From Chloroflexota bacterium (GTDB taxonomy: Bacteria > Chloroflexota > Dehalococcoidia > SM23-28-2 > RBG-16-64-32), in the NCBI GenBank assembly GCA_022574655.1, contig JACZRQ010000084.1:1-12078 (forward strand): DNA of 12,078 bases, read 5' to 3'. A program made the position numbers and the translations under genes. A model generated the notes under the pieces. The model made no database searches. It saw nothing but the letters and a program-made list of their open reading frames with translations, and was not told the DNA's origin. Positions 1 through 12,078 of the stretch are shown piece after piece; position 1 is the first letter of the stretch, and each line of letters starts with the position of its first letter.

Positions 1-161
1 GCCCACGACGGCTTCTGCCGGGCGTCGGTAGCCTCGACGGCGGGGTCGGTACCCCGGTGGAGAGAGGCAGCCTCCGGCCCGTGCCTCTGTTCGTCTACGA
101 GTCGGCGAAAGACGGGATCGTCCGAAGCAATCCAAAGCTTGTTAGATCAGTTCTCGCCCTG

Positions 162-890
162 ATGAAACGAGAGAACAGGCCAGCAATCGAAGCTATCGAG
201 TACACAGTACGGCGAAGTCGCAGACGCCGACGCACAATGGCGATCACTGTCGACGCCGAAGGTGCAGTCCGAGTTGCGGTGCCGAACCACGTCTCCTCGG
301 CCGCTGTTGCCGCCTTCGTCCAGGAGCGCGCGTCATGGATCGAGAAGCAGCGAAAGGCCAGCCGCGCTAGGCTCGCCGTGCCCAAACGCTTCGTGGATGG
401 TGAGAGCTCGTTCTTCCTGGGGCGCGCATACGCTTTGCGGATCCAGGCAGGAACGAACCAGCACACGGAAGTGCGTCTGGAGGGGCGTGCGCTGGAAATA
501 TCGGTGCCCCAATGTCACGAGACGTCCGAAGCGCGTGCGGCGGCTGTCCGATCCGCGCTCGAGGCCTGGTACCGGTCTGAGGCAGAACGGGTGATCGCCA
601 GCCGGATTCTGCACTACGAGGGGGGGGTTCGTGTGCAGCCGAAAGCTCTTCGCATCAGCAACGCTAGGAGGCAGTGGGGTAGCTGCTGCCCCGGAGGTAC
701 TATCCGAATCAGCTGGCGATTGATCATGGCACCGCTGTCCCTCATTGACTACGTCATTGTCCACGAACTCTGTCACCTGCGACACTCGAATCACGGACGA
801 CTATTCTGGGGCTTGGTGGGTACGATCCTGCCGGATTACGAGTCGCTGCGCGGCCAGCTGCGCCGCGAGGGTGATCGCTACGCCATTTGA
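162..890 (+). CDS. YgjP/DUF45-family zinc-dependent metallohydrolase (M48-like, HEXXH motif)
   Basis: The translation contains the family signature IDYVIVHELCHLRHSNHGRLFWGLV (HELxH followed by NHS..FW). The N-terminal block EYTVRRSRRRRRTMAITVDAEGAVRVAVP matches the usual start of DUF45 proteins (Y.L.RS.RRKT..I.V..G.V.V.AP). The frame is open back to the window edge. A GTG at 57 is an alternative start; I chose the ATG at 162 (MKRENRP...) because it gives the typical ~240-aa family length. The TGA stop is at 888-890. Confidence 0.7.
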   Translation: MKRENRPAIEAIEYTVRRSRRRRRTMAITVDAEGAVRVAVPNHVSSAAVAAFVQERASWIEKQRKASRARLAVPKRFVDGESSFFLGRAYALRIQAGTNQHTEVRLEGRALEISVPQCHETSEARAAAVRSALEAWYRSEAERVIASRILHYEGGVRVQPKALRISNARRQWGSCCPGGTIRISWRLIMAPLSLIDYVIVHELCHLRHSNHGRLFWGLVGTILPDYESLRGQLRREGDRYAI

Positions 891-920
891 GCCAGACCGT
901 TGCTCGGCGGCCTCTCCGGC

Positions 921-970
921 TTCTGCTACGCCAGAAATGGCGCGTATAACTTCGCCGAGCCCTCTATACT
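921..970 (+). promoter_or_regulatory. candidate sigma70-type promoter for the liv operon (-35 TTCTGC 921-926, 17-nt spacer, -10 TATAAC 944-949; alternative -10 TATACT 965-970)
   Basis: Hexamers read directly in the 120-nt gap between the DUF45 gene and livG. The match to consensus is weak and this is speculative. Confidence 0.2.
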
Positions 971-1009
971 GAACAGAACATCAGGAGGGAGACCTTCGAC
1001 CACTTCGCG

Positions 1010-1789
1010 ATGAATGATTCAGAGGCTATCCTAGACGTTCAGAATCTGTCCAAGTCCTTCGGCGGCCTCATGGCCGTGAAAGACTGTAGCATCTCGGTCC
1101 GCCGTGGCAAGATCACCGGCCTTATTGGCCCCAACGGCGCGGGAAAGACGACCCTGTTCAACCTGATCACCGGCTTTCTAAAGCCCACCTCCGGCCACGT
1201 CTTCTTCGAAGAGCAGCAGATCGATGGCCTGCCACCTCACCAGATCTTTCGAAAGGGCATGGTGCGTACCTTCCAAATTCCCCGCGAGCTAAAGACCATC
1301 ACTGTCCTGGAAAACCTCATGTTAGTGCCCGCCCACCAGGCAGGGGAGCAGATCTGGAACCCGTGGTTCTTTGGATCGCGGGTTTCTCGACAGGAGCGCC
1401 ACATCTACGAACAGGCGATGGATGTTCTGAAGTTCATCGACCTCGTTCATCTTCGTGATGAGTACGCTTCCAGTCTCTCCGGAGGGCAGCGGAAACTGCT
1501 GGAGCTGGGCCGCACGCTCATGTGCGGCCCTCGGATAATCCTCCTGGATGAGCCGGGCGCCGGCGTCAATCGCGTCCTCATGCGGAAGCTCGTCGACAAT
1601 ATCCAGGTGCTCTGCCACGACCAGGGCATTACTTTTCTCGTCATTGAGCACGACATGGACCTGGTCACCCGGCTCTGCAACCCGGTCATCGTCATGAGCG
1701 AAGGCCGCCAGATTGCGGAAGGGCCGCCGGAGGAGATCAAGCAAAACGAGCAGGTGCTGGAGGCATACTTGGGTGGGCAGTACCGGTGA
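1010..1789 (+). CDS. livG: HAAT-family (branched-chain amino acid type) ABC transporter ATP-binding protein, LivG-like
   Basis: Walker A GLIGPNGAGKTTLF, ABC signature LSGGQRKLLELGRTLM, Walker B IILLDEPGAG, and an H-loop (IEHDM) are present. The N-terminus ILDVQNLSKSFGGLMAV matches the start of LivG proteins. An AGGAGGGAG SD-like sequence lies upstream at 983-991 but the 18-nt spacer is long. The TGA stop at 1787-1789 overlaps the livF start. Confidence 0.9.
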   Translation: MNDSEAILDVQNLSKSFGGLMAVKDCSISVRRGKITGLIGPNGAGKTTLFNLITGFLKPTSGHVFFEEQQIDGLPPHQIFRKGMVRTFQIPRELKTITVLENLMLVPAHQAGEQIWNPWFFGSRVSRQERHIYEQAMDVLKFIDLVHLRDEYASSLSGGQRKLLELGRTLMCGPRIILLDEPGAGVNRVLMRKLVDNIQVLCHDQGITFLVIEHDMDLVTRLCNPVIVMSEGRQIAEGPPEEIKQNEQVLEAYLGGQYR

Positions 1790-2508
1790 GCATCGTCCTC
1801 CAGGCCACGGGCATCGTCGCGGGCTACGGGGAAGTGGAGATCCTCCACGGCGTATCGCTCAGCGTTCAGGAAGGAGAGATGGTGGCGGTGATTGGGCCAA
1901 ACGGGGCCGGCAAGTCGACGCTGCTCAAGACGATATTCGGCCTGCTCCCAGTTCGTGAGGGAACGGTGCTGCTACGGGGCGAGGACGTGACCAACCAGCC
2001 CCCGGACCGCATCGTCACGAAGGGGATGTCCTTCGTGCCTCAGACCGAGAATGTGTTCCCCAGTCTCAGCGTCAACGAAAATCTGGAAATGGGTGCCTTC
2101 ATCCGCCGGGACGGCCTTCGTGAGCGGCTAGAGCGCGCGTACGACCTCTTTCCTGACCTCACCGCTCGACGGGGCGACCGCGCGGGCCAGCTCTCCGGGG
2201 GGCAACGGCAGATGCTCGCGCTCGCGCGCGCGCTCATGCTCGACCCCGACGTGCTTCTCCTCGACGAGCCCTCCGCCAGCCTCTCGCCGAAGATGGTCGA
2301 CTCGCTCTTCGAGAAGATAGGCGAGATCAACCGGACCGGCACGGCGATCCTACTGGTGGAGCAGAACGCCCGCGAGGCGCTTGCCAAGAGCCAGCAGGCC
2401 TACGTCCTGGCGATGGGTGAGAACCGGCTGGAGGGTAAGGCTGCGGACCTACTGGATAACGAAGAGGTAGCCAAGCTCTACTTAGGGTCCGACTTGAACG
2501 ATGCCTAG
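1786..2508 (+). CDS. livF: HAAT-family ABC transporter ATP-binding protein, LivF-like
   Basis: The GTG start at 1786 overlaps the livG stop (GTGA), indicating translational coupling. It carries Walker A GPNGAGKSTLLKTIFG, signature LSGGQRQMLALARALM and Walker B LLLLDEPS. The C-terminus VAKLYLG resembles the LivF tail AYLGG. Confidence 0.9.
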   Translation: MSIVLQATGIVAGYGEVEILHGVSLSVQEGEMVAVIGPNGAGKSTLLKTIFGLLPVREGTVLLRGEDVTNQPPDRIVTKGMSFVPQTENVFPSLSVNENLEMGAFIRRDGLRERLERAYDLFPDLTARRGDRAGQLSGGQRQMLALARALMLDPDVLLLDEPSASLSPKMVDSLFEKIGEINRTGTAILLVEQNAREALAKSQQAYVLAMGENRLEGKAADLLDNEEVAKLYLGSDLNDA

Positions 2509-3595
2509 TCGTAGGAGTCCGTTCATCAACGCGATCGCGGCCGCCCGGAGCTACTACCGAAATCTGGGCGATACAGCTTCTGCTGTGGTCATTTGGGCCT
2601 TGATCGGCGCCCTCTTCGTCTGGGCGCTTATCGGGGAGACCGAAGCTCTGGTGATCGGTATTGTGACGGGAAGCGTCTTCGCGCTTGGCGCTATCGGACT
2701 CACGCTCATCTACGGCATTCTGAAGTTCGCGCACTTCGCCCACGGCGATGCGATGATGCTTTCCGCCTATCTCGCCTTCTTCTTCCTCACGGGTACGGTG
2801 GTAGGAGAGCGGACGGATACCCAGCCCTTGCACTGGTCGCTGAACGACCTCCCGGGCGCCGCCGAGCCTCTAATGGGTTTCTCCTTCGGGTACGGCCTGC
2901 TCCTCTCCATGGCCGTCGCCGCCGTCGCGATGGCGATAGTCCTTGTTGTGCTGGACCGGCTAATCTACCGGCCGCTTCGCCGGCGTGGCAGCGGCATCGT
3001 CATTTTCGCCATCGCGTCGCTCGCCGTCGCCATCTCCCTGCGGAGCGTCATCCTGATGTTCTGGGGCCCCTCGCCCCGGTTCTACGTGCGGGGCATCCGC
3101 CCAACTACGGACCTCCCTTTTGACATCCGCGTGGTAACGGACCAGTTCTTCATCTTTGCAGCCGCGATCATTCTGGCCGCGTTGGTCTACGCGATACTAT
3201 TCCGGACCAAGCTGGGTAAAGCAATGCGCGCGATGTCCGACAACGCCGATCTAGCGCTCGTGTCCGGTATCAACACCGAGCGTGTGGTCACGTGGACCTG
3301 GGCCATCGGCGGAACGCTGGTCGCCATCGCTGGCGTGTTGCTTGCGCTCCAGTCGCAGCTCAAGCCGGAGCTGGGATTCGTGCTTCTGTTGCCGCTATTC
3401 GCTTCTACAATTTTAGGCGGCATCGGCAGCCCTCAGGGCGCCTTCGCAGGCGGCATGATCGTCGGTATCAGCCAGGAGGTGGCGGTAACGTTCGGCTTCC
3501 TCAGCCCCGGCTATAAGTTCTCAGTGGCCGTGGTCATATTGATCGTGATCTTGCTAGTGCGGCCTAGAGGGTTGTTTGGAGCGCAGCAGCGATGA
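2501..3595 (+). CDS. livH: HAAT-family ABC transporter permease, LivH-like
   Basis: A multi-pass hydrophobic protein. The block GAIGLTLIYGILKFAHFAHGDAMM aligns to the LivH region IGYTMVYGIIGMINFAHGEVYM. The ATG at 2501 overlaps the livF stop (ATGCCTAG). The N-terminus is about 35 aa longer than E. coli LivH, so the true start could be an internal GTG, for example near 2585. Confidence 0.8.
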   Translation: MPSRRSPFINAIAAARSYYRNLGDTASAVVIWALIGALFVWALIGETEALVIGIVTGSVFALGAIGLTLIYGILKFAHFAHGDAMMLSAYLAFFFLTGTVVGERTDTQPLHWSLNDLPGAAEPLMGFSFGYGLLLSMAVAAVAMAIVLVVLDRLIYRPLRRRGSGIVIFAIASLAVAISLRSVILMFWGPSPRFYVRGIRPTTDLPFDIRVVTDQFFIFAAAIILAALVYAILFRTKLGKAMRAMSDNADLALVSGINTERVVTWTWAIGGTLVAIAGVLLALQSQLKPELGFVLLLPLFASTILGGIGSPQGAFAGGMIVGISQEVAVTFGFLSPGYKFSVAVVILIVILLVRPRGLFGAQQR

Positions 3596-4785
3596 AGCTG
3601 CCGCTCAGCGTCGCCGACGTTCGCAGCCGGATCAAGCCGGGTGATCTCCTGGCACCCGCTGCGTTTCTCATCGTTACTGCCGGATTGCTCTTCATACTTG
3701 CTGACCGCTCCGGCTGGGACGCGAGCCGCGTCTTAAACTTCTATACCTTCTTCCTCACATTCGTCGCCATCTACGCCATGTTCGCCCTCGGCCTCAACAT
3801 CCACTGGGGATATACGGGCATTCTCAACTTCGGTGTCATGGCCTTCTTCCTGTTGGGCGCGTATACGGCCGCCATCATCACAAAGCCTCCCGCCAGCGGC
3901 GATTTCGTTGAGTACATCGGTGGCTACGGCGAAAAGCTGGCCTTTCTGCCGTTCCTGAACAGCGAGGAGTGGCTGCCATTCCTCTTCGGCATGGCTACAG
4001 CAGCCGTCGTCTGCGGCATCTTGGCTTTCCTGGTTTCGATCCCCGCTATGCGGCTGCGAGAGGACTACCTGGCCATCGTGACCATTGGCATCGCCGAGCT
4101 GCTGCGCCGTATCACGATCGAGGAGCAATGGCTGGTCAACGGCACCCGCGGGCTTCCCGGCATTCCCCGGCCGCTTGGCGGCCTCGTGGAGCCGGGCGAC
4201 TACAGGTTCGTGCTGCTCGGTATCGTCGTCGTTGTACTCATGATCGTCTACTTCGCTGTCGAGCGCGGAATCCGCTCTCCCTGGGGTCGCGTCCTGCGCG
4301 CGTTGCGAGAAGACGAGTTGGCCACGGCTGCCAGCGGCAAGAACGTCTTCTCGTTCAAGTCGCAGTCATTCGTGCTGGGAGCGATGATCATGGGCATGGG
4401 CGGGGCCCTCTACGCTTACGCGTTCAGCGCCCTTTCGTCGGACACCTTCAACCACTTCTTCGCCACGTTCCTGATCTGGGCCATGTTGATTGTAGGCGGC
4501 CCCGGTAACAATAAGGGCGTCGTTCTTGGCGCCTACGTCGTCTGGGGTTTCTGGAACATCACGCTGTTGCTGCAGGGCTATGATATGCCCGGCGTCATCG
4601 CCACCCGTATCCCGTTCATCCGCGAATTTGTCGTGGGTGTACTCATTCTCCTCGTCCTTCTCCTCCGGCCACAGGGGTTGATGCCGGAGGTGCGCCGGGT
4701 CTCCATCTGGGTGGAGCGCCACACCAAGGCCACTTCCGGCCTGGCACAAGAGTCGGCTGAGCAGACAGAAACTCCTTCTAACTAG
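3592..4785 (+). CDS. livM: HAAT-family ABC transporter permease, LivM-like
   Basis: The ATG at 3592 overlaps the livH stop (ATGA). It encodes a hydrophobic multi-TM protein of 397 aa, the LivM size class. It is the second permease of the pair, positioned after livH. Confidence 0.85.
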   Translation: MKLPLSVADVRSRIKPGDLLAPAAFLIVTAGLLFILADRSGWDASRVLNFYTFFLTFVAIYAMFALGLNIHWGYTGILNFGVMAFFLLGAYTAAIITKPPASGDFVEYIGGYGEKLAFLPFLNSEEWLPFLFGMATAAVVCGILAFLVSIPAMRLREDYLAIVTIGIAELLRRITIEEQWLVNGTRGLPGIPRPLGGLVEPGDYRFVLLGIVVVVLMIVYFAVERGIRSPWGRVLRALREDELATAASGKNVFSFKSQSFVLGAMIMGMGGALYAYAFSALSSDTFNHFFATFLIWAMLIVGGPGNNKGVVLGAYVVWGFWNITLLLQGYDMPGVIATRIPFIREFVVGVLILLVLLLRPQGLMPEVRRVSIWVERHTKATSGLAQESAEQTETPSN

Positions 4786-4802
4786 CTTAGCCAAGATAAA
4801 GA

Positions 4803-4832
4803 GCAAGGGCCTCTCCACCGGGAGGCCCTTGC
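4803..4832. terminator. bidirectional intrinsic terminator hairpin between convergent livM and the substrate-binding protein gene
   Basis: A perfect 11-bp stem, GCAAGGGCCTC (4803-4813) with GAGGCCCTTGC (4822-4832), encloses an 8-nt loop. On the - strand the hairpin is followed by a U-rich run (reverse complement of 4793-4803, CUCUUUAUCUU), so it is best placed to terminate the - strand binding-protein transcript. It lies 18 nt after the livM stop. Confidence 0.55.
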
Positions 4833-4880
4833 CAATAGTCTCGTTTCGGCGCCCAACCTGTCAGGCAGGGCACTGGTTCG

Positions 4881-6185
4881 TTACTCGATCTTTGTCACTT
4901 CGCCCGTGGTCAGATCGACTCTGAACGACTCGTCGCTGACGAGTTCTTGCGCGGCAACATCGACGTGCCATGTCTCGATGGCGCCTACAAGTACGTCGCC
5001 GACGTCGTCGAAGTCGACGGGCCCCGCGGCGCCCTCGTAGTTGATAGCATCGCCCGCTGCGAGAAGCGCAAGAGCGGCGGTGAACCCTTCGACGCCTGGC
5101 GCGACGATCTCGCCATCAGGGCCCGCGACGTCACGCAGCTCGTTGCGGATAGCTGTCGAGTTGACGGAGCCGGCCGCCTCTGCAGCCAGCGCGATGAGGT
5201 ACACAGCGTCGTACGTTTCTCGCAGGAACGGCAGCGCTGGTGTCTCGCCGTTCTCGGCCGCGAATGCGGCATCGAAGTCGGCGCCCGCCGTAACCTCTAG
5301 GAAGCCGGGCGCGGTGCCCTGCATGCCGTCAAAGGCCGCCGGCCAGCCGAGCTGCTCAAACATGTCCCCGGACTTGGTGCCGTCCACAAACAGGAAGCTA
5401 TCAACGTCCCCTCGCTCGACCGCCTCCCGCAGGAATACGCCGGCGCTCTCCGGGTAGGCGAGCGCGGCGATGGCGTCCGGGGCATCAGCCACGCACGTTT
5501 CCAGCTCGGAGGCGTAGGACGGCTGTTCCGCTTCGTGCGGAACTTGCGCGGGGACGGTACCGCCCGCGGCCTCAAAGTCAGTTGCAAAGAGCCCGGACAG
5601 GCCTTCACCATACGCGTTGTTTATGTGCATGGTGCAGACGCTGTCATAGCCGGCGTTCTGCGCAAGAGTGGACAGCACACCTCCTTGAGCAAGGTCAGAG
5701 ATGGTGGTGCGGAAGAAAAAGTCGTTGTCGGCAACCTCAATCAGGGCGACCGACGTAGACGCGGGGGATATCTGTAGGATACTCCCCGGCCCGGTCACAG
5801 ACTCCACAATTGGCAGCGTTACCCCGCTGGAGAGCGCTCCCACAATAGCATGCACTCCCTCAGCTTCGATTAATCGGGTGGCTTCGGTCACGCCCTGTCC
5901 GGGATCAGTGCCCGTATCACCTGGCACGATCTCGATCGGTTCTCCCAAGACGCCGCCTGCTTCATTGATCTCCTTCGCCGCCAGCTCTGCCGCAAGGAGC
6001 AGGTTTGGCCCGAAGTCAGACAAGCCGCCGGTGGAGGCGACGAGCACGCCGATCTTTAGCGGTCCTACTTCTATGTCTGCTTCGCCTTCGTCATCGTCGT
6101 CACCGCACGCCGCCACCAACAATAATGATAGGATCGTTCCGACTACCAAGAGCATCCATTTCTTGTGAGTCAGCCATGAAAACAT
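4881..6185 (-). CDS. ABC transporter substrate-binding lipoprotein, Leu/Ile/Val-binding (type I periplasmic binding protein) family
   Basis: The N-terminus MFSWLTHKKWMLLVVGTILSLLLVAAC carries a lipobox LVAAC followed by an acidic linker GDDDDEGE. The body has the features of the Leu/Ile/Val-binding-protein (type I periplasmic binding protein) family. A strong SD GGGAGG lies 6 nt before the ATG on the - strand. The gene is convergent with livGFHM. Confidence 0.85.
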   Translation of the reverse strand: MFSWLTHKKWMLLVVGTILSLLLVAACGDDDDEGEADIEVGPLKIGVLVASTGGLSDFGPNLLLAAELAAKEINEAGGVLGEPIEIVPGDTGTDPGQGVTEATRLIEAEGVHAIVGALSSGVTLPIVESVTGPGSILQISPASTSVALIEVADNDFFFRTTISDLAQGGVLSTLAQNAGYDSVCTMHINNAYGEGLSGLFATDFEAAGGTVPAQVPHEAEQPSYASELETCVADAPDAIAALAYPESAGVFLREAVERGDVDSFLFVDGTKSGDMFEQLGWPAAFDGMQGTAPGFLEVTAGADFDAAFAAENGETPALPFLRETYDAVYLIALAAEAAGSVNSTAIRNELRDVAGPDGEIVAPGVEGFTAALALLAAGDAINYEGAAGPVDFDDVGDVLVGAIETWHVDVAAQELVSDESFRVDLTTGEVTKIE

Positions 6186-6244
6186 ATACTGCCTCCCTTC
6201 AAGCCTCCTGGGGTCCGGCCTCAGCCTGCATAAAAGCGTAAGCG

Positions 6245-6261
6245 CCTAGACCTTCTAGGTC
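6245..6261. repeat. short overlapping palindromes (CCTAGA-cct-TCTAGG and GACCT-tct-AGGTC) upstream of the binding-protein gene
   Basis: Inverted repeats read directly from the sequence, about 60-75 nt upstream of the - strand start codon at 6185. They could be an operator, or a coincidence. Confidence 0.25.
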
Positions 6262-6303
6262 AAGTCGATGATGTAATCCCCTGATCGCAGAGTCGGTGGA
6301 GCA

Positions 6304-6352
6304 GCTGCTTTACAAGCAGAGGTCGACGGTTCGAGTCCCTTCTCCCGCTCCA
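6304..6352 (+). tRNA. partial tRNA-Val(UAC): 3' half only (anticodon arm, variable loop, T-arm, acceptor 3' strand and CCA); the 5' acceptor strand and D-arm are not recognisable
   Basis: An anticodon stem GCTGC/GCAGA flanks the loop TTTACAA (U33, anticodon TAC, A37). A canonical T-loop GG-TTCGAGT-CC sits at 6328-6338, with one mismatch (C51-C63) in the T-stem. The 3' acceptor strand CTCCCGC is followed by discriminator T and CCA at 6350-6352. No GCGGGAG partner strand or D-arm exists upstream. A 7-bp inverted repeat GGTGGAG (6295-6301) / CTCCACC (6349-6355) brackets the fragment. Its layout matches the 3' half of E. coli tRNA-Val(UAC). Confidence 0.5.
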
Positions 6353-6387
6353 CCCGGGCGTTCCGCGCGATCGTCGAGCAGGACGTT

Positions 6388-7407
6388 TTGGGGCTCGCCC
6401 CGCCCCCGGAGCTACTGACACTGCAACAGGACCTTCCCCGGCGTGCCTTCGCCTTCGGTACGAACGAAGAAAAGGTCGAGTCATTCATGGAGTGGCTGCG
6501 CGAGAACGACAGCATTGAGATCCTTGACCTATTCCCAGGACAGGAGCGCGCGGTCGTCGGGAGCGTCAGGTACGCCAACGTCTACATCGACTCGGCCTAC
6601 AAGAAGGGGATCCGCTTGGCGGAGACCGAGATGCAGAAGCGTGGGATCAAACCGTCCCGGCTGCCGGCAGATGCGGACATCACGATCGACGCACTCTTCA
6701 ACCGTCCGATCCACGCGGATAAGGTCGCCCAGATATACCAGCGCGTGTACTCCGACCTCCGAAACATTACCGATGAAATGGAGCAGCAGATATCTGAGGT
6801 GCTTGCGCAGAGCTTGGCCGATGGGCTCGGGCCGCGGGAGACGGCGCGCATCCTGCAAGACCGCATCCACAAGACAGGCGGCACCTTGGCGCTGGACTTC
6901 ACAACCGAGAAGGGGATTAAGTTTAAGATGCGCGCGAGAAACCGCGCGATTATCTTGGCACGTACAGAGATCATTCGCGCCCATCACGTCGCCACGATCA
7001 ATACCTACCGCGAAGCTGGCGTCGAGGGCGTCCGAGTACTGGCGGAGTGGCGTACTGCCGGAGATGAGCGGGTCTGCGAGCGATGCGAGGCTTTGGAAGG
7101 ACAGATATTCACCCTGGACGAGATCGAGGGACTGATTCCCCTGCACGCCCAGTGCCGGTGCGTGGCGTTGCCAGCGAGGATCACCATGGTGGAGCGCGCG
7201 CGCGCCGATGGTACGATTAACCCTCCCATCCCGCCGGCGCCGGACGGTTCTCCCGTCGAAAACAACACTTTAAGATCAGGCAACGACCCCATGACGACCC
7301 TCACGGCCTCCGGAGCACACAGCACGCATAATGCCACTCCAGGACGACTGAAGGGTCTCTGGGGCCGTTCTGTTCGATTCGTCGATACATACATGGAGGA
7401 GGCCTGA
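6388..7407 (+). CDS. phage head morphogenesis protein, MuF / SPP1 gp7 family
   Basis: The Phage_Mu_F domain signature is strong: ARTEIIRAHHVATINTYREAGVEGVRVLAEWRTAGDERVCERCEALEGQIFTLDEIEGLIPLHAQCRCVALP, with ARTE, the CxxC pair and the PLH..CRC motif. The start is uncertain: the ORF track uses TTG at 6388, while the first ATG is at 6487 (MEWLREND). The frame is open upstream through the tRNA fragment to 6277. The domain is followed by a roughly 80-aa C-terminal tail (Pro-rich linker PPIPPAPDGSP, then about 50 aa). Confidence 0.85.
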   Translation: MGLAPPPELLTLQQDLPRRAFAFGTNEEKVESFMEWLRENDSIEILDLFPGQERAVVGSVRYANVYIDSAYKKGIRLAETEMQKRGIKPSRLPADADITIDALFNRPIHADKVAQIYQRVYSDLRNITDEMEQQISEVLAQSLADGLGPRETARILQDRIHKTGGTLALDFTTEKGIKFKMRARNRAIILARTEIIRAHHVATINTYREAGVEGVRVLAEWRTAGDERVCERCEALEGQIFTLDEIEGLIPLHAQCRCVALPARITMVERARADGTINPPIPPAPDGSPVENNTLRSGNDPMTTLTASGAHSTHNATPGRLKGLWGRSVRFVDTYMEEA

Positions 7408-7409
7408 CA

Positions 7410-7859
7410 ATGGATAATGAAATCTGCACGATAGGATACGAAGGCGTCACGCTTGGTATGTTCGTCGAGTGCCTGCGCTCCGCCAGCGTGGAGGTACTGA
7501 TTGATTGCCGCATCCGTGCACAGAGCCGTAAGAAAGGTTTTTCAAAAACAGCGCTATCCGAAGCGCTAGCCCAGCAGGGAATCGGCTATGTGCATGATCG
7601 GGATCTGGGAACCCCGAAGGAAATCATGAAGGTCTTCAGGGAAACCAAATTCTACGACTGGGACGCATACAATGCCTTCCTGTCTACGAAAAAGGCGAAC
7701 GTAGTTGCAGCCGCACGTATCGCGAGCGAACAGAAAATATGCTGCATGTGCTATGAGGCGGACGCAGAAACATGCCATCGGAGATTCGTAGCTGCGGCCA
7801 TCGCCAAAATCACAGGCACGGGCATAGATCATTTACAGCCGGCAGAAACGGAGACCTGA
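7410..7859 (+). CDS. DUF488-family protein (function unknown)
   Basis: An N-terminal TIGYEG motif and LIDCRIRAQSRKKGFSKTALSEALAQQGIGYVHDRDLGTP fit the DUF488 consensus (TiG....DVR..P.SRK.gFnk..L...L...GI.Y.h...LG). The ATG lies 2 nt after the MuF TGA stop (TGACAATG). Local GC is about 50%, visibly lower than the flanks. Confidence 0.8.
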   Translation: MDNEICTIGYEGVTLGMFVECLRSASVEVLIDCRIRAQSRKKGFSKTALSEALAQQGIGYVHDRDLGTPKEIMKVFRETKFYDWDAYNAFLSTKKANVVAAARIASEQKICCMCYEADAETCHRRFVAAAIAKITGTGIDHLQPAETET

Positions 7860-7860
7860 C

Positions 7861-8028
7861 ATGGCAACGCAGCAAATACAGACCGTCGACCGCTCCAGAG
7901 ACAAGGGGCACCCCGGCGACTGCAACGATATCGCACGCCAGCGCGCCGATCACCGAAGCTCACCGCCTTCTCCTGAGTATTGCGAGAACTACAACGGGAT
8001 CAACTGGAAATCCAGGGGGGATGCCTGA
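7861..8028 (+). CDS. hypothetical 55-aa protein (MATQQIQTVDRSRDKGHPGDCNDIARQRADHRSSPPSPEYCENYNGINWKSRGDA)
   Basis: It is not in the supplied ORF track because it is under the length cutoff. It exactly fills the gap between the DUF488 stop (TGA 7857-7859) and the next gene, with ATG at 7861 and TGA at 8026-8028. Both ends show the same stop-C(A)-ATG coupling geometry seen at the neighbouring junctions. The composition is low-complexity, so it may equally be non-coding spacer. Confidence 0.3.
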   Translation: MATQQIQTVDRSRDKGHPGDCNDIARQRADHRSSPPSPEYCENYNGINWKSRGDA

Positions 8029-8029
8029 C

Positions 8030-8305
8030 ATGGCCTGCGAACACAAGAATATGTATCGAGAGCATCGCAAGGTTCCGAACGGGAAAGGAGTAGATGAGAT
8101 TGTTATCGTTGGTGCCAAGTGCGGAAAATGCGGCGAAATACTTAGATTCTCTAAGCCATACGCTAGCAGCGATTCTCGAACCGATCAACACAATTTAGAG
8201 GTGTTCATCTTTAAATACAATGGTGCCCTGAACAGGATTAAAGAACTAGAGGAAGAGCTATCCCGAAAGGAGGAGTCCGTTAATCATGCCACTGCCAGAG
8301 CGTAG
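8030..8305 (+). CDS. small zinc-ribbon-like / coiled-coil protein, hypothetical (92 aa)
   Basis: It reads MACEHKNMYREHRKVPNGKGVDEIVIVGAKCGKCGE..., with Cys3/His5 plus a CGKCG CxxC pair. The C-terminal LNRIKELEEELSRKEESV looks like a coiled coil. The gene is clearly AT-richer (about 45% GC) than the surrounding 60+% DNA. ATG 8030 follows the upstream TGA by one C (TGACATG); an alternative ATG lies at 8021. The long track ORF 7772-8305 is this gene plus a spurious out-of-frame extension into the DUF488 gene. Confidence 0.5.
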   Translation: MACEHKNMYREHRKVPNGKGVDEIVIVGAKCGKCGEILRFSKPYASSDSRTDQHNLEVFIFKYNGALNRIKELEEELSRKEESVNHATARA

Positions 8306-9965
8306 AGAAGGGGAAACGAAGACCGACTACATCGACCGCTGCATGTCTGACCCACAGGCGGTCAAGGACTTCGCCGACAGAGACCAGCGGTTCGCTGTCT
8401 GCTCGGGCCTCGCTGACAATAGCCAGGACGATGGGCTCTGGCGGCCGGGATCAACGGAGAACACAATGATAACGAACATGGTACACATCGAGGCGAATAT
8501 GTCTGCCCTCGTGCGGACGGACACATTCGAAGGCAAGGAGCACTGGGTCATTCCGTTCATCGCGCTGAAGGGCAACGTGATAATGAACGACCTCTTTTAT
8601 CCGCAGGCGGAGGTCGACAAATACCCCGAAGCGTGGAACGGCATCCCTCTGCCCGTATTCCATCCGACCAAGGACGGCGAGAACGTAAGCGCCAACGACC
8701 CCACGATGATTGAGGAGCGGTCCGTTGGGCGTACGTTCAACTGCATGATCGAGGACGGCAAGCTGAAGGGGGAGGCGTGGGTCGACAAGGAGAAGTGCCG
8801 GGCGATATCGAACGAGCTCGCCGAGATGATCGAGAACGGCGACCCGATCGAGATCTCCACCGGGCTCTTCCCCGACTACGACGGCAAGGCCGGCACCTTC
8901 GATGGCAACTGGTACAAGTCCAGCGTTTTCAATTACAGGCCCGACCACTTGGCGCTGCTACCGGGTGGCGTTGGCGCGATGAATTGGAAGGATGGCGCCG
9001 GGATGCCCCGGGTCAATAAGCAAGACGGCACGAACCAAGAGGGAGAGGACGACGAAATGACGATACTCGAACGCATGCGCCGGATGAGCGCGAACGCACA
9101 TATCAGCCACAGCGATCTCTGGATGCTCATCAATACCAAGGTGAAGGACGAACGCGGGGCCACGGCGTTCGTGATCGACGTGTTCGACGAATTCTTCATC
9201 TACGATATTGACTCGGCCGACGGCATGCAGGTGTTCCAGCAAGCCTACACCGAGACGGAAAGCAACGTGACCTTCAGCGGCGACCCAGTTGCCGTTCGTA
9301 GGCAAACCGAATTCGTTCCCATAACCAATGAGAGCGACAATGCAATCGGCGGAGCTCAGAACAAACAGGGCAAAGCCACCAACAAGGAGGGTGAGTCCAT
9401 GGATAGGACAGTACTCATCAACGCCCTGATCGCTAACGAAGCAAGCGACTGGGCCGAGGAAGACCGCGAGGGCTTAGTCGCGATGAGCGACGAGGACTTC
9501 GGAGGCGTTACCGTCAACAAGCCGGCCGCGGATGCGGATGGCGACGACGGCGACGGAACGACGGACGGAGCGGATAAGGGCAAAGTCACCCCCGCGGCCG
9601 GAACGCCGGCAGTCGCAGATCCCACACCGGATCCCGCGCCAGCCACCAACACGAAGCCGATGACGCTCAACGAACTCATTGAGTCCTGCGGTGATCCCGC
9701 ACTCAAGGGAACGCTGACGCGAGCGGTGGCCCGCGACAGCGAGATCCAGTCGAACATGGTCAAAGACCTGCTCGAGATCAAGGATTCGCCGTTTACCGCC
9801 AACGACCTCAAGGACAAGAGCATCGAGGAGCTTGGAAAGTATCTCAAGCTCGCCGGCTCCCTGAAGGAAGCGAACGACTACAGCGCGCAAGCGGTTGCCG
9901 TCGTGGATAACGTGGACGACTCGGACGTTCCGGACATGCCCCGCATGTCATGGAAAAAAGACTAA
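8286..9965 (+). CDS. phage prohead protease / scaffold-like protein: N-terminal DUF2213/S78-like domain, C-terminal acidic scaffold region
   Basis: A strong SD AAAGGAGGAG lies 10 nt before ATG 8286. The segment GKLKGEAWVDKEKCRAISNELAEMIENGDPIEISTGLF resembles the prohead-protease/DUF2213 core; this assignment is from memory and not verified. The C-terminal third is acidic, low-complexity and helical (ADADGDDGDGTTDGADKG...). Its position between MuF and the capsid gene matches Mu gene I. Confidence 0.6.
   Translation: MPLPERREGETKTDYIDRCMSDPQAVKDFADRDQRFAVCSGLADNSQDDGLWRPGSTENTMITNMVHIEANMSALVRTDTFEGKEHWVIPFIALKGNVIMNDLFYPQAEVDKYPEAWNGIPLPVFHPTKDGENVSANDPTMIEERSVGRTFNCMIEDGKLKGEAWVDKEKCRAISNELAEMIENGDPIEISTGLFPDYDGKAGTFDGNWYKSSVFNYRPDHLALLPGGVGAMNWKDGAGMPRVNKQDGTNQEGEDDEMTILERMRRMSANAHISHSDLWMLINTKVKDERGATAFVIDVFDEFFIYDIDSADGMQVFQQAYTETESNVTFSGDPVAVRRQTEFVPITNESDNAIGGAQNKQGKATNKEGESMDRTVLINALIANEASDWAEEDREGLVAMSDEDFGGVTVNKPAADADGDDGDGTTDGADKGKVTPAAGTPAVADPTPDPAPATNTKPMTLNELIESCGDPALKGTLTRAVARDSEIQSNMVKDLLEIKDSPFTANDLKDKSIEELGKYLKLAGSLKEANDYSAQAVAVVDNVDDSDVPDMPRMSWKKD
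9399..9965 (+). CDS. candidate nested scaffold protein from an in-frame internal start (Mu Z-like), 188 aa
   Basis: An internal ATG at 9399 is in frame with 8286 and is preceded by a canonical SD AAGGAGG (9384-9390) with an 8-nt spacer. The product would be the acidic helical C-terminal region MDRTVLINALIANEASDWAEEDREGL... A second in-frame candidate is ATG 9057, preceded by AGAGGGAGAGGA. Confidence 0.4.
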   Translation: MDRTVLINALIANEASDWAEEDREGLVAMSDEDFGGVTVNKPAADADGDDGDGTTDGADKGKVTPAAGTPAVADPTPDPAPATNTKPMTLNELIESCGDPALKGTLTRAVARDSEIQSNMVKDLLEIKDSPFTANDLKDKSIEELGKYLKLAGSLKEANDYSAQAVAVVDNVDDSDVPDMPRMSWKKD

Positions 9966-10002
9966 CCCGAAACGATCGTAAACAAATAAGGAGGAACGAC
10001 AA

Positions 10003-10440
10003 ATGGCGTTCAACACGATCATGAATGTAGGGGATGGGATTCAGTACGAGGCGAAGGCCGATGCTGCGATCACTCCGGGAATGCTCGTCGAAGAGCTCTC
10101 CACGGGGAACATCCAGAAGCAGGCGACCGCCAAGGCAAACGTCGAGAATGCCGTGGCGATCGAGAACCACCTGATTGGCGAGGATATCGCCGACGATTAC
10201 GCGACGGGCGACAACGTGCTCTATCGCGTCTACGGATCCGGACAACAGGCGCTCCTCATCCTCAAGCAGGGCGAGACAGTTGCCATTAGTGACTCGGTAG
10301 AAGCTGCCGGCGGTGGCGAGGTCCAGAAGCTGACAAGCGCTGGAACCAACCCGGTCGGTATTGCGCGGAATGCAGTGGATGCGAACGCTTCCACCGCGAC
10401 GCCCCTAGTGAATCGCCGGGTCATCGTGCGCTTCTTCTAA
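10003..10440 (+). CDS. phage head protein, hypothetical (possible head-decoration / DUF2190-like), 145 aa
   Basis: A strong SD AAGGAGG lies 8 nt upstream of ATG 10003. It sits between the protease/scaffold and the major capsid gene, where Mu-like modules carry a small head protein. The family assignment is from memory and unverified. Confidence 0.6.
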   Translation: MAFNTIMNVGDGIQYEAKADAAITPGMLVEELSTGNIQKQATAKANVENAVAIENHLIGEDIADDYATGDNVLYRVYGSGQQALLILKQGETVAISDSVEAAGGGEVQKLTSAGTNPVGIARNAVDANASTATPLVNRRVIVRFF

Positions 10441-10478
10441 CCGTTAACCTGGATAAACGAAAATAGGAGGACCAGAAA

Positions 10479-11168
10479 ATGGACATGCAGTTCATCCAGA
10501 ACATGATCGCGAACGGTAGCATGACGGTCGCCCAGAGGCTTCTCGCCTCGGGGATGAACGTCAACTGCCTTCGCACCAACGCCACGCTTCAGAAGGATGA
10601 GTGGCTCGTGCTGGACCGTGCCATAATTGATGTGGCGCAGAACCGGCTTCGCGTGTATCGGGACGTGATCGAACGCGGCCTCGTTTTAGCCCTCACCAAC
10701 GGCCTCGGAAAGACCGTTCTTGAGTCGGAGAACGTGGGTGACATGCGACGTGCGCAGGTCTCGATGGATGGTGTGACCGTCGGCGAGAACGACGCGGTGA
10801 ACTATGAGACAGTGGGGATCCCGCTGCCTTTCATCCACAAGGACTACACCATCTCAATTCGCAAGCTGAACGCTTCGCGGAACGAGGGCGAGGCCCTTGA
10901 CACAACGCAGGCGCGCCTCTCCACGCGGAAGATCGCGGAGGAGCAGGAGCTGATGCTGCTCAACGGATTCGGTATCACCACGGCGACGTACACCATCTAC
11001 GGGTACACCAACTTCCCGCAACGGAACACGGTGACCCTGGTGAAGGACTGGGACGACGTGACGATTACGGGTGCCAACATCGTCGCCGACGTGCTGGCGA
11101 TGAAGCAGGCCCTGATCGACGCGAAGTTCTTCGGGCCTTACGCGCTGTATATCCCGACGGCCTATGAG
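10479..11168 (+). pseudogene. major capsid protein, encapsulin-like HK97 fold (DUF2184-type), 3'-truncated: only the N-terminal ~230 aa are present
   Basis: SD AGGAGG lies 8 nt before ATG 10479. The translation aligns block by block with encapsulin/linocin-type shell proteins: L.KDEW..LD.A sits where encapsulin has LTEKQWQEID, GIPLPFIHKDYTISIRKLN matches SLPLIELRATFTLDLWELD, TRKIAEEQELMLLNG matches VRKVAEFEDEVIFRG, and GPYALYIPTAYE matches GPYTLVINTDRW. The final ~80-100 residues expected after GPY.L.I.T are missing. With no stop, the frame instead continues into hydantoinase sequence. Confidence 0.7.
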
Positions 11169-12078
11169 ACCCCGCTGGACGAAGAAGCCCTGGACCGGGC
11201 GTTGGACCAACTGGCGGCGGAGGGAGTGGAGGCCCTGGCCGTCTGCTTTCTTTTCTCGTATCTGAACCCGGACCACGAGATGCGCGTTTCCGAGAAGATC
11301 GAGAAGCGCTTCCCCGGCATGTACACCTCCATATCCAGCCAGGTGATCCCCCAGATAAAAGAGTTCGACCGGTTGAGCACCACCGTGGTCAACTCGTACG
11401 TGGGCCCCGTGTTCGGGAAATATCTGGCCAACCTGAAAGAGCGGCTATCGTCCTATCAAGAAGCCAAGGACGTGCTGGTCATGCAGTCCAACGGCGGCGT
11501 GGCCCCCATCGAGGACTCCAGCCGGATGGCCGTGCGCGCCATCCTGTCGGGTCCGGCAGGCGGGGTAAACGGCGCCGCCGCCTACGGCCGGTTGCTGGAC
11601 CAGCCCAACATCATCGCCTTTGACATGGGCGGCACCAGCACCGACATATCGTTGATCCAAAATGGCGTTCCCCACCTGACCACGGAAAAGTTCGAGGCCG
11701 GCTGGAAGATAGCCGTTCCCATGATCGACATCCACACCATGGGCGCCGGAGGCGGCAGCATCGCCTCGGTGGGCCCCGGCGGCATACTCCACGTCGGCCC
11801 CGAAAGCGCCGGCGCCGATCCCGGTCCCGCGTGTTACGGCAAGGGCGGAACCCTCCCCACGGTGACCGACGCCAGCCTGCTCCTGGGTTATCTGGATTCC
11901 AACAATTTCCTGGGGGGACAGGCCAAGCTTGACCGTCAGCTTTCGGAACGCGCCCTGGAAGAGCATGTGGCTGAACCCCTGGGCCTTTCGACGGCTGAAG
12001 CCGCCCACGGCGTGTCGCGGGTGGTTTCCGCGGCCATTGCCGAGGGAATCCGCCTGATGTCCGTGCACCGGGGGGTTG
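11169..12078 (+). CDS. hyuA: hydantoinase A / 5-oxoprolinase / acetone carboxylase beta-subunit family protein (HyuA-like), 5'-truncated and fused in frame to the capsid fragment; continues past the window end
   Basis: PLDEEALDRALDQLAAEGVEALAVCFLFSYLNPDHEMRV matches the conserved HyuA N-domain block PLDEE....L...GVEA.AVC.L.SY.NP.HE.RV. This is followed by TSISSQVIPQIKEFDRLSTTVVNSYVGP and the family hallmark AFDMGGTSTDISLI. The first ~100 residues of HyuA proteins, with the IGIDVGGTFTD motif, are absent. The piece is open at the 3' end. Confidence 0.85.

Follow-up and report, generated by a model that had tools for sequence, protein, structure and literature searches.

The window, meaning the whole 12,078-bp stretch of DNA analysed here, is one entire contig of a Chloroflexi MAG and is a three-part mosaic of host DNA (1-6371), a phage head module (6361-11185) and hyuA sequence (11165-12078). 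Segment A (1-6360, no strand assigned), delimited by alignment to the contigs L003 and L004 and by Pfam, is host Chloroflexi/Dehalococcoidia DNA. It encodes a YgjP-like peptidase, livG/F/H/M-type ABC transporter genes and, on the minus strand at 4881-6185, a Peripla_BP_6 substrate-binding protein (Pfam), and it also holds the intergenic region upstream of the latter gene. An 11-nt host/phage overlap, the left join (6361-6371, no strand assigned), was defined from the raw sequences of the window, L003, L004 and L006. Segment B (6372-11164, plus strand) is a fragment of a tailed-phage head module, recognised by identity to L005 and L006, synteny with L001, Pfam and PHROG. It opens with a MuF-like head morphogenesis gene that lacks its 5' end (6361-7407, plus strand, from alignment to L001 and L005/L006); after this come a DUF488 gene (7410-7859), small ORFs, a scaffold/protease-like gene of the DUF2213/phrog_760 type (8286-9965), a gene for head decoration (10003-10440) and finally codons 1-228 of a capsid gene. 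The right join, a 21-nt overlap (11165-11185, plus strand), was placed with the L005/L006 and L002 alignments and leads into Segment C (11186-12078, plus strand), an internal fragment of a hyuA-type hydantoinase/oxoprolinase gene identified by alignment to L002 and by Pfam. The junction strings of the contig are GGGCGTTCCGCGCGATCGTC and GACGAAGAAGCCCTGGACC, the second preceded by CCTATGAGACC.

Across the right join runs a chimeric ORF (10479-12078, plus strand; translation, Pfam, singleton cluster) which, as the preliminary description had reported, stays open from the ATG at 10479 to the window end, giving 533 codons without a stop. Its capsid part matches DUF6260 at residues 36-225 (profile positions 6-197 of 301; 66.8 bits, cut-off 26.6) and Linocin_M18 at residues 31-227 (30.9 bits, cut-off 24.3) in Pfam, and PHROG 771, a virion structural protein, over residues 7-226 (E = 1.5e-19). 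The second part matches Hydant_A_N at residues 227-276 over profile positions 125-174 of 176 only, and Hydantoinase_A at residues 298-533 (252.6 bits, cut-off 22.9) over profile positions 1-238 of 291, where the match is ended by the contig edge (Pfam). These results bear out the families first proposed for the two halves, a capsid protein and HyuA. Both domains are cut mid-fold, and the earlier statement that neither half can be functional is correct. The capsid part retains 235 of the 328 residues of an identical full-length parent and lacks the C-terminal 93; the C-terminal truncation previously noted is thus real, with 28% of the protein missing rather than a third. The HyuA part begins at codon 136/137 of a relative, the first ~136 residues being absent, and not ~100 residues into the family as had been suggested; Segment C proper, from 11186, begins near codon 143 of that relative.

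The N-terminal 235 residues belong with the DUF6260/Linocin_M18 HK97-fold capsids, such as the major capsid protein of Brevundimonas phage vB_BpoS-StAshley, and the full-length 328-aa parent is 36% identical to annotated major capsid proteins over 94% of its length; unlike complete members of this group, the window copy is without its C-terminal 93 residues. The deposited name of the chimeric ORF is 'encapsulin, partial' (MCH8815567.1, nr), a name that we did not retain, given that the window capsid gene follows MuF, scaffold/protease-like and decoration genes, that its L001 counterpart lies between portal/MuF and tail genes, and that the closest cultured matches are annotated as phage major capsid proteins. 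Residues 236-533, with their strong Hydantoinase_A match, belong to the HyuA/HyuB N-methylhydantoinase/5-oxoprolinase family and share 92% identity with a HyuA-HyuB protein from Chloroflexi; unlike complete HyuA, the window copy lacks most of Hydant_A_N and its 3' end lies off the contig. At the nucleotide level the hyuA part is 91.1% identical to positions 7578-8489 of L002, a contig of another Chloroflexi MAG, where the match falls within a partial HyuA-HyuB gene (826 aa, start at 7171) with 407 nt upstream of the join. No hyuA parent more than 92% identical was present in the protein collection searched. The chimeric protein itself forms a singleton cluster (one member, from one contig of 12,078 bp).

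To the left, the host parent of the contig is known from two other assemblies: L003, a 22-kb scaffold from sample SAMN16252684, and L004, a MEGAHIT k141 contig from a separate ENA assembly. Positions 1-6361 of the window are identical to L003, and over 1-6371 there are two mismatches, at 6362 and 6364, both inside the overlap; L004 differs at three positions over the same stretch, these two among them. Past 6371, L003 and L004 both carry sequence unlike that of the window and agree with each other (stretch inspected: 6372-6440), and L003 continues for a further 9.8 kb with ThuA, TauE and PPDK-like genes. Within the left overlap, the host version TGCTGCGCGAT and the phage version TTCCGCGCGAT are identical at 9 of 11 positions, and the window carries the phage base at both 6362 and 6364. 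Exact identity at the switch point is 1 nt only, the 11-nt overlap having two mismatches. Among random host x phage position pairs, matches of at least 9/11 occur at a frequency of 2.2e-4. This second join, at 6361-6371 inside the MuF gene, had been missed in the preliminary description. In L003 and in eight related Chloroflexota/Dehalococcoidia genomes, neither hyuA nor a capsid gene was found out to 10 kb from the host flank, and no liv genes occur in the 7 kb upstream of the L002 hyuA. ThuA and TauE, which adjoin the livK-like gene in L003, are not conserved neighbours in relatives of 65-81% identity.

The phage part (6361-11185) is 99.98% identical to two independent low-coverage contigs, L005 and L006, with one mismatch in 4825 nt, and shows no decay when compared with these free-standing contigs: neither frameshifts nor stops interrupt it, and every ORF is intact. 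It is syntenic with L001, a 52.6-kb phage-like contig whose genes encode portal, MuF, a 560-aa protein, a 145-aa protein, a 328-aa capsid and tail proteins. In the window the MuF-like gene is without its first ~69 codons, start codon and ribosome-binding site, the earliest possible in-frame start being the TTG at 6388; the window aligns to L001 from 6581, and the 419-aa MuF gene of L001 starts at 6374. L005 and L006 hold 26 nt more of genuine MuF coding sequence upstream of the left join (FRLIRRLI; FRTIRRAI in L001), and downstream of the right join L006 has the complete 328-aa capsid gene. The same phage genes also occur on a third contig, of 2-5 kb, and none of L005, L006 or this third contig has a junction to the host segment or to hyuA. 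The 4825-nt phage part is nested in a piece of L005 of nearly equal length (1-4941, ending at a 10-N scaffold gap), so that the window joins sit 26 nt and 90 nt inside the ends of that piece. The coverage label in the contig name of L006 is cov 4.6. IMG/VR does not contain the intact phage sequence, a result that says no more than that the phage is missing from this collection.

Alignment of the parents places the right-hand switch at 11165-11185, within the interval 11140-11200 indicated at the outset and at the same PTAYE/TPLDEE transition. The overlap, T GAG ACC CCG CTG GAC GAA GA, is 21 nt long and is read as ETPLDE, in the same phase, by both the capsid gene (…PTAYETPLDEDFST…) and hyuA (…VETPLDEEALDR…), which explains why the join is in frame. 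L005 and L006 match the window at 21 of 21 positions here and diverge at 11186. L002 aligns from 11165 and matches 17 of the 21, all four differences being at third codon positions; this figure uses a 91%-identical hyuA relative as a stand-in for the true parent. The true hyuA parent, expected at about 100% identity, was absent from every collection searched, and the exact length of the overlap, up to 21 nt, is inferred from this 91% relative. Between the two parent contigs, 21-mer matches of 17/21 or better number 39 in ~1e8 position pairs.

Composition was rejected as a test of origin, as GC, GC3 and codon-usage likelihoods fail to separate the three segments; GC3, for example, is 0.838 in the capsid part vs 0.818 in the hyuA part. 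Such measures cannot show different source genomes and are silent either way. The step in GC content that had been described at the right join is absent, with values of 0.600, 0.620, 0.600 and 0.593 in 300-nt windows across it and a rise only ~400 nt later.

We looked for the junction elsewhere. In a search of 5.8 billion proteins, all matches except the window's own protein cover at most 64% of the query. When 1.84 billion representatives were searched exhaustively with a query lying across the junction, each of the best 150 matches proved one-sided. The two proteins matched in more than one stretch were rejected as two-sided matches, P0141 (two matched stretches) being a duplicated HyuA fragment and P0144 (19 stretches) a junk repeat protein. 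Among 241 million JGI metagenome records none contains the junction peptide, sought as a degenerate pattern that covers every codon usage, and the exact junction 50-mer is absent from the GTDB species genomes. A conserved family joining a capsid N-terminus to a HyuA C-terminus, which would have spoken against the original reading of the ORF as a junction of two truncated genes, was thus sought and not found in these collections.

These data allow us to propose how the contig arose. The host, phage and hyuA parents each continue differently in other assemblies, both joins lie on sequence common to two parents with overlaps far above chance, and the junction is peculiar to one assembly; together these observations make it very probable that the contig is an assembly chimera of misjoined metagenome segments. 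Under this model, three unrelated segments of one sediment-type metagenome would have been stitched end to end, namely a Chloroflexi chromosomal segment, a short low-coverage phage head-module contig and a hyuA fragment from another low-coverage locus or genome. Each join would have formed where two contig tips share a short similar stretch, 11 nt with two mismatches at the left join and at most 21 nt at the right one, and the artificial right join would happen to preserve the reading frame, giving the apparent capsid-HyuA 'fusion' ORF. The position of the joins just inside the ends of the L005 piece, together with the cov 4.6 label of L006, is as expected if a short, low-coverage contig was joined at its tips. 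We infer that the joining took place in the assembler, during smallest-k graph construction or in a tip- or gap-closing step, rather than in a cell. The left overlap is shorter than a simple de Bruijn join at k>=21 requires, and joining there calls for overlapping tips, gap closing or a chimeric read. Overlaps as short as 10 nt, at a Hamming distance of up to 2, would be accepted by the SPAdes gap closer. The probable source study of the contig is that of Zhou et al. 2022 (PMC8938466), in which reads were merged and assembled with SPAdes 3.13 in isolate '--careful' mode with k = 21,33,55,77,99,127. The link to this study is indirect: L003 and L005 are labelled 'ZHOU22-1', the isolate name of L007, a distant relative, includes the site code 'T1B11', and a neighbouring WGS prefix, JACZXR01, is described as Mariana Trench sediment. 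The smallest k used there (21) equals the length of the right overlap. The contig resembles misassembled, inter-genome chimeric contigs of short-read metagenomes and MAGs, which likewise combine segments of different sources, short shared sequences at the joins, a unique junction, parents intact elsewhere, low-coverage pieces, truncated genes and an artificial fusion ORF. It differs from the usual case in that the right join is in frame, and hence passes for a fusion protein, and in that the left overlap is below every k in the likely k-set, which points to tip merging or a chimeric read. The same junction anatomy would also arise by microhomology-mediated recombination in vivo.

Template switching favours short shared sequences, and overlaps of 21 nt and 9/11 nt would suit an origin before assembly, in chimeric molecules made in vitro by template switching in library PCR or whole-genome amplification, or by ligation, and then assembled faithfully across low-coverage ends. 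A bridging chimeric read would explain the left join, where exact identity is too limited to permit a k-mer graph join, and at the low coverage of the phage contig (cov 4.6 for L006) one read can extend a tip. We nevertheless regard this as unlikely, since two separate chimeric molecules would be needed at both ends of one short contig; moreover, an amplification step was not found in the main text of the probable source paper, where 'amplif' occurs 0 times (PMC8938466). A genuine capsid-hydantoinase fusion, for instance an encapsulin-like shell protein carrying an enzyme domain, might be read from the continuous reading frame and from the 'encapsulin' product name given by NCBI. This is extremely improbable, given that neither the 5.8 billion clustered proteins nor the 1.84 billion representatives held a second example, that the capsid profile ends at 197/301 and Hydant_A_N starts at 125/176, that the gene is surrounded by a tailed-phage head module and not an encapsulin operon, and that the identical capsid gene is known at its full length of 328 aa.

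The remaining alternative is a rearrangement in the cell, in which a decayed prophage or captured phage fragment in a subpopulation of the Chloroflexi host acquired both its ends by illegitimate, microhomology-mediated recombination or deletion. Short (micro)homology at junctions is typical of RecA-independent deletion and end joining, and the joins seen here fit such processes; GC3 and codon usage are similar across the three segments, the host segment and the hyuA relative are both from Chloroflexi, and truncated phage genes between host genes recall cryptic prophages. Against this, two independent illegitimate events within 4.8 kb would be required. Host DNA exceeding 10 kb would also have had to be lost or rearranged, given that neither L003 nor the related genomes carry hyuA close to the host flank. 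There is no integrase domain among the eight ORFs scanned against Pfam (all large phage-part ORFs included), no direct repeat flanking the phage part that could represent an att duplication, and no terminase, portal or tail remnant. The undecayed phage part, at 99.98% identity to free-standing contigs, is unlike an old remnant, the position of the joins 26-90 nt from the ends of an independent contig is a coincidence that biology leaves unexplained, and the junction has been observed once only. We therefore consider this explanation quite improbable. A tRNA-like stretch at 6287-6352, resembling the 3' part of a tRNA beside the phage genes, was examined as a possible att site and rejected, since ARAGORN called no tRNA, the Rfam score was 17.3 bits against a threshold of 29, and the stretch belongs to the uninterrupted host DNA of L003 and L004. 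Cryptic or defective prophage remnants such as e14, Rac and DLP12 of E. coli K-12 likewise retain a small number of phage structural genes, the outermost of them cut short, with chromosomal genes on both sides. Unlike such scars, the phage piece here is undecayed, has no integrase or att site, has flanks that are not neighbours in the uninterrupted host scaffold and has been sighted once. Neither L003 nor the eight related genomes have the two flanks as neighbours, and a prophage deletion scar is not supported. The preliminary description had offered a prophage scar or a chimeric assembly join, and the latter is the one favoured by our data.

If the contig were nonetheless a true molecule, which we hold to be a slim chance, a 4.8-kb phage head-gene fragment would have been captured by microhomology-mediated joining between two distant chromosomal loci, in a subpopulation of a Chloroflexi bacterium probably from hadal sediment, and the shared ETPLDE 21-mer would have given rise to an in-frame hybrid gene, capsid(1-235)-HyuA(137-). 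A real join would be a modest curiosity, a single case of microhomology-mediated capture of phage DNA. With assembly chimerism as the preferred explanation, the relevance of the locus lies chiefly in data quality, as a public MAG contig bears two foreign segments and an artificial ORF has entered nr. An in-frame, stop-free junction is no proof against misassembly, given that coding sequences with similar codon usage and a common short peptide such as ETPLDE can join in phase. Taken at face value, the contig would suggest a prophage in a Chloroflexi genome, and thereby a false virus-host link, together with a supposed new capsid-enzyme fusion and a pseudogenised hyuA.

Translation confirmed that the frame opening at ATG 10479 runs for 533 codons to the window end without a stop. 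As the preliminary description had proposed, its two parts come from different families. The N-terminal part belongs to the HK97-like DUF6260/Linocin_M18 phage capsid group (Pfam DUF6260 at residues 36-225, profile 6-197 of 301; Linocin_M18 at residues 31-227; PHROGs virion structural/major head protein at residues 7-226) and the C-terminal part to the HyuA family (Pfam Hydant_A_N at residues 227-276, only profile 125-174 of 176; Hydantoinase_A at residues 298-533). The breakpoint suggested there (…PTAYE/TPLDEE…) agrees with base-level alignment to the parent sequences, while other details required correction: 235 of 328 capsid residues are present, so that the loss is not of a C-terminal third, HyuA starts near codon 137 rather than about 100 residues in, and GC does not step up at the join (0.600, 0.620, 0.600 and 0.593 in 300-nt windows across it; GC3 0.838 in the capsid part vs 0.818 in the hyuA part).

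To identify the parents we used exact-sequence lookup of the window proteins, followed by BLASTN of the window against the sequences retrieved. Host DNA in two independent assemblies matches positions 1-6371: the 22-kb scaffold L003 from SAMN16252684 differs at 2 positions, and L004, a MEGAHIT k141 contig of a separate ENA assembly, at 3. Positions 6361-11185 differ at a single base in 4825 nt from two phage contigs, the SAMN16252683 scaffold L005 and the SPAdes NODE contig L006 ('cov 4.6'), and 11165-12076 matches L002, a Chloroflexi MAG contig carrying a hyuA relative, at 91% identity. On these alignments the contig is a three-part mosaic of host, phage and hyuA DNA. Each end of the phage segment lies inside a gene, so the capsid/hydantoinase junction is one of two joins, and it is only because of these joins that the capsid and HyuA are truncated in the window.

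At the right join the parents share 21 nt (11165-11185, T GAG ACC CCG CTG GAC GAA GA), encoding ETPLDE in the same codon phase in capsid and hyuA, which is sufficient on its own to give an in-frame, stop-free junction. Here the phage reads …CCTATGAGACCCCGCTGGACGAAGA/CTTCAGC…, the window …CCTATGAGACCCCGCTGGACGAAGA/AGCCCTGGACCGG… and the hyuA relative …GGGTTGAAACTCCGCTAGATGAAGA/AGCCCTTGACCGG…. The 91% identical relative matches the overlap at 17 of 21 positions, with all four differences at third codon positions; in the true hyuA parent, identity could reach 21 of 21. Even with these 17 matches, this site ranks with the 39 best among about 1e8 21-mer pairings of the phage and hyuA contigs, and therefore the join was guided by sequence similarity. 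Downstream of 11185, L006 continues with the remaining capsid gene (…ETPLDEDFSTAKGTDTIRERIL…), 328 aa in total.

A second chimeric join, missed in the preliminary description, lies at 6361-6371, where host DNA (…GGGCG TGCTGCGCGAT GAAGG…) gives way to phage DNA (…GATC TTCCGCGCGAT CGTCG…) inside a MuF-like gene, leaving this gene without its first ~69 codons, start codon and ribosome-binding site. The overlap is 11 nt with 9 matches, the window carrying the phage base at both mismatches; a match of this quality occurs in 2.2e-4 of random pairings. In SPAdes, gap closing joins contig tips whose overlap is 10 nt or longer and has no more than 2 mismatches, limits that the left overlap would fit exactly. 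Past 6371, L003 and L004 differ from the window and agree with each other (inspected over 6372-6440), and the continuation in L003 is 9.8 kb long and includes ThuA, TauE and PPDK-like genes. Upstream of 6361, L005 and L006 carry 26 extra nt of genuine MuF coding sequence, translating to FRLIRRLI; the related phage-like contig L001 (77-89% identical) has FRTIRRAI. L005 and L006 both begin within the MuF gene, at the equivalent of window position 6335, which precedes the left join by 26 nt. As they are different assemblies, possibly of the same reads, this shared start points to a gap in coverage, or to variation in the phage population, at that site.

The genes upstream of the chimeric frame form a tailed-phage head module by Pfam and PHROGs, all on the forward strand: MuF-like (6388-7407), DUF488 (7410-7859; Pfam, 85.5 bits), DUF2213/phrog_760 scaffold/protease-like (8286-9965) and head decoration (10003-10440). 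The 52.6-kb L001 shows the complete module, in the order 500-aa, portal, 419-aa MuF, 55-aa, 560-aa, 145-aa and 328-aa capsid, then tail genes, and 94% of the full-length capsid aligns to proteins that are annotated as major capsid proteins in cultured siphoviruses. This gene context is not that of an encapsulin, and an encapsulin identity for the N-terminal part was rejected. The DUF488 gene, between the MuF-like and scaffold/protease-like genes, is absent from L001 (compare L001 7633-7807), has a GC3 of 0.59, well below its neighbours (0.74-0.84), and looks like a moron-type insertion. Directly before the scaffold/protease-like gene, ~270 nt (window 8013-8285; L006 1696-1971) are missing from L001 and match no family; they form a 91-aa ORF in L006 and part of a 177-aa ORF (7772-8305) in the window.

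The joined protein was also sought elsewhere. In a search of 5.8 billion proteins, non-self matches cover at most 64% of the query, the best C-terminal match (P0002) being a partial 826-aa HyuA-HyuB from another Chloroflexi MAG (92% identical) and the best N-terminal match (P0016) a 328-aa capsid protein (95% identical). When 1.84 billion representatives were searched exhaustively with HMMER, using 221 residues across the junction as the query, none of the best 150 of 7972 matches was two-sided; HyuA relatives matched query residues ~101-221 and capsid relatives 1-~152. The two multi-stretch matches were rejected as fusions: one is a HyuA fragment that has been duplicated, the other a junk repeat. 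Neither GTDB genomes nor JGI metagenomes contained the junction. With one-sided matches only among the 5.8 billion proteins and in the best 150 of the HMMER search, we rejected a conserved family joining a capsid N-terminus to a HyuA C-terminus, and a genuine fusion family is extremely improbable.

Of the two origins first offered for the junction, a chimeric assembly join is very probable, the closest known category being an inter-genome chimeric contig; a prophage deletion scar is not supported. A cryptic prophage scar is defined by neighbouring flanks, integration hallmarks and decay, yet the livK-like host gene has no hyuA within 10 kb in L003 or 8 related genomes, the 7 kb preceding hyuA in L002 contain no liv genes, Pfam detected no integrase domain in the eight ORFs scanned, neither an att repeat nor a tRNA was found, and the phage piece is without decay. 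The same observations make a rare real recombinant or rearrangement very unlikely. An in-vitro chimeric molecule, formed by template switching at these short homologies, is likewise very unlikely. In favour of an assembly artefact, the junction is unique and all three parents run on intact in other assemblies. The window phage segment ends 26 nt and 90 nt inside the L005 piece 1-4941, which precedes a 10-N gap, and phage coverage is low (L006). This fits a mechanism in which a short, low-coverage phage contig would be glued at its tips to other contigs, whereas a biological event offers no explanation. GC3 and codon usage are similar in all three parts; composition therefore does not discriminate among these origins, and the similarity explains the retention of the contig in binning. 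We conclude that the junction is not real as a biological feature.

L005, a metaSPAdes-style scaffold, also ties the low-coverage phage piece to other DNA: its 10-N gap (4942-4951) falls within the capsid gene, the sequence beyond the gap is unrelated (an ORF there matches T2SSF weakly), and the 276-aa 'capsid' call of L005 is an artefact. The probable source of the window contig is Zhou et al. 2022 (PMC8938466), who ran SPAdes 3.13 on merged reads in isolate '--careful' mode (k = 21,33,55,77,99,127). Consistent with this, the ENA scaffolds L003 and L005 are labelled ZHOU22-1, the site code 'T1B11' used in that study recurs in the isolate name of the distant relative L007, and Mariana Trench surface sediment is the description given for a neighbouring WGS prefix, JACZXR01. 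The smallest k used there (21) equals the right-overlap length.

Two further features were observed, one in the host DNA and one in the hyuA relative. Upstream of the livK-like gene, in intergenic DNA, lies a tRNA-like remnant (6287-6352, +). Its recognisable parts are a D-arm, a stem-loop resembling that of an anticodon (loop TTTACAA), a T-arm and ...CTCCCGCTCCA, with no matching 5' acceptor strand; it scores 17.3 bits against Rfam tRNA (threshold 29), and ARAGORN calls no tRNA there. Its presence in L003 and L004 indicates host DNA, and the remnant may have arisen by degeneration of a tRNA or as the scar of an old integration. In L002, the closest relative, 7171-9647 encodes HyuA and HyuB in one polypeptide (ORF of at least 826 aa; Hydant_A_N, Hydantoinase_A, Hydant_A_C, Hydantoinase_B), adjoining genes for an M20 peptidase, a creatinase-like M24 peptidase and a methyltransferase.

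The chimeric frame is deposited as MCH8815567.1, "MAG: encapsulin, partial [Chloroflexi bacterium]", a singleton cluster from one contig of 12,078 bp. This length equals that of the window, which is therefore a complete contig of a metagenome-assembled genome. The deposited name is doubly wrong, the N-terminal part being a phage major capsid protein encoded in a head module and hydantoinase making up the C-terminal 57%. The practical value of these findings is to flag the misassembly of a MAG contig, an nr entry under the wrong name and a phage-host link that may be false.
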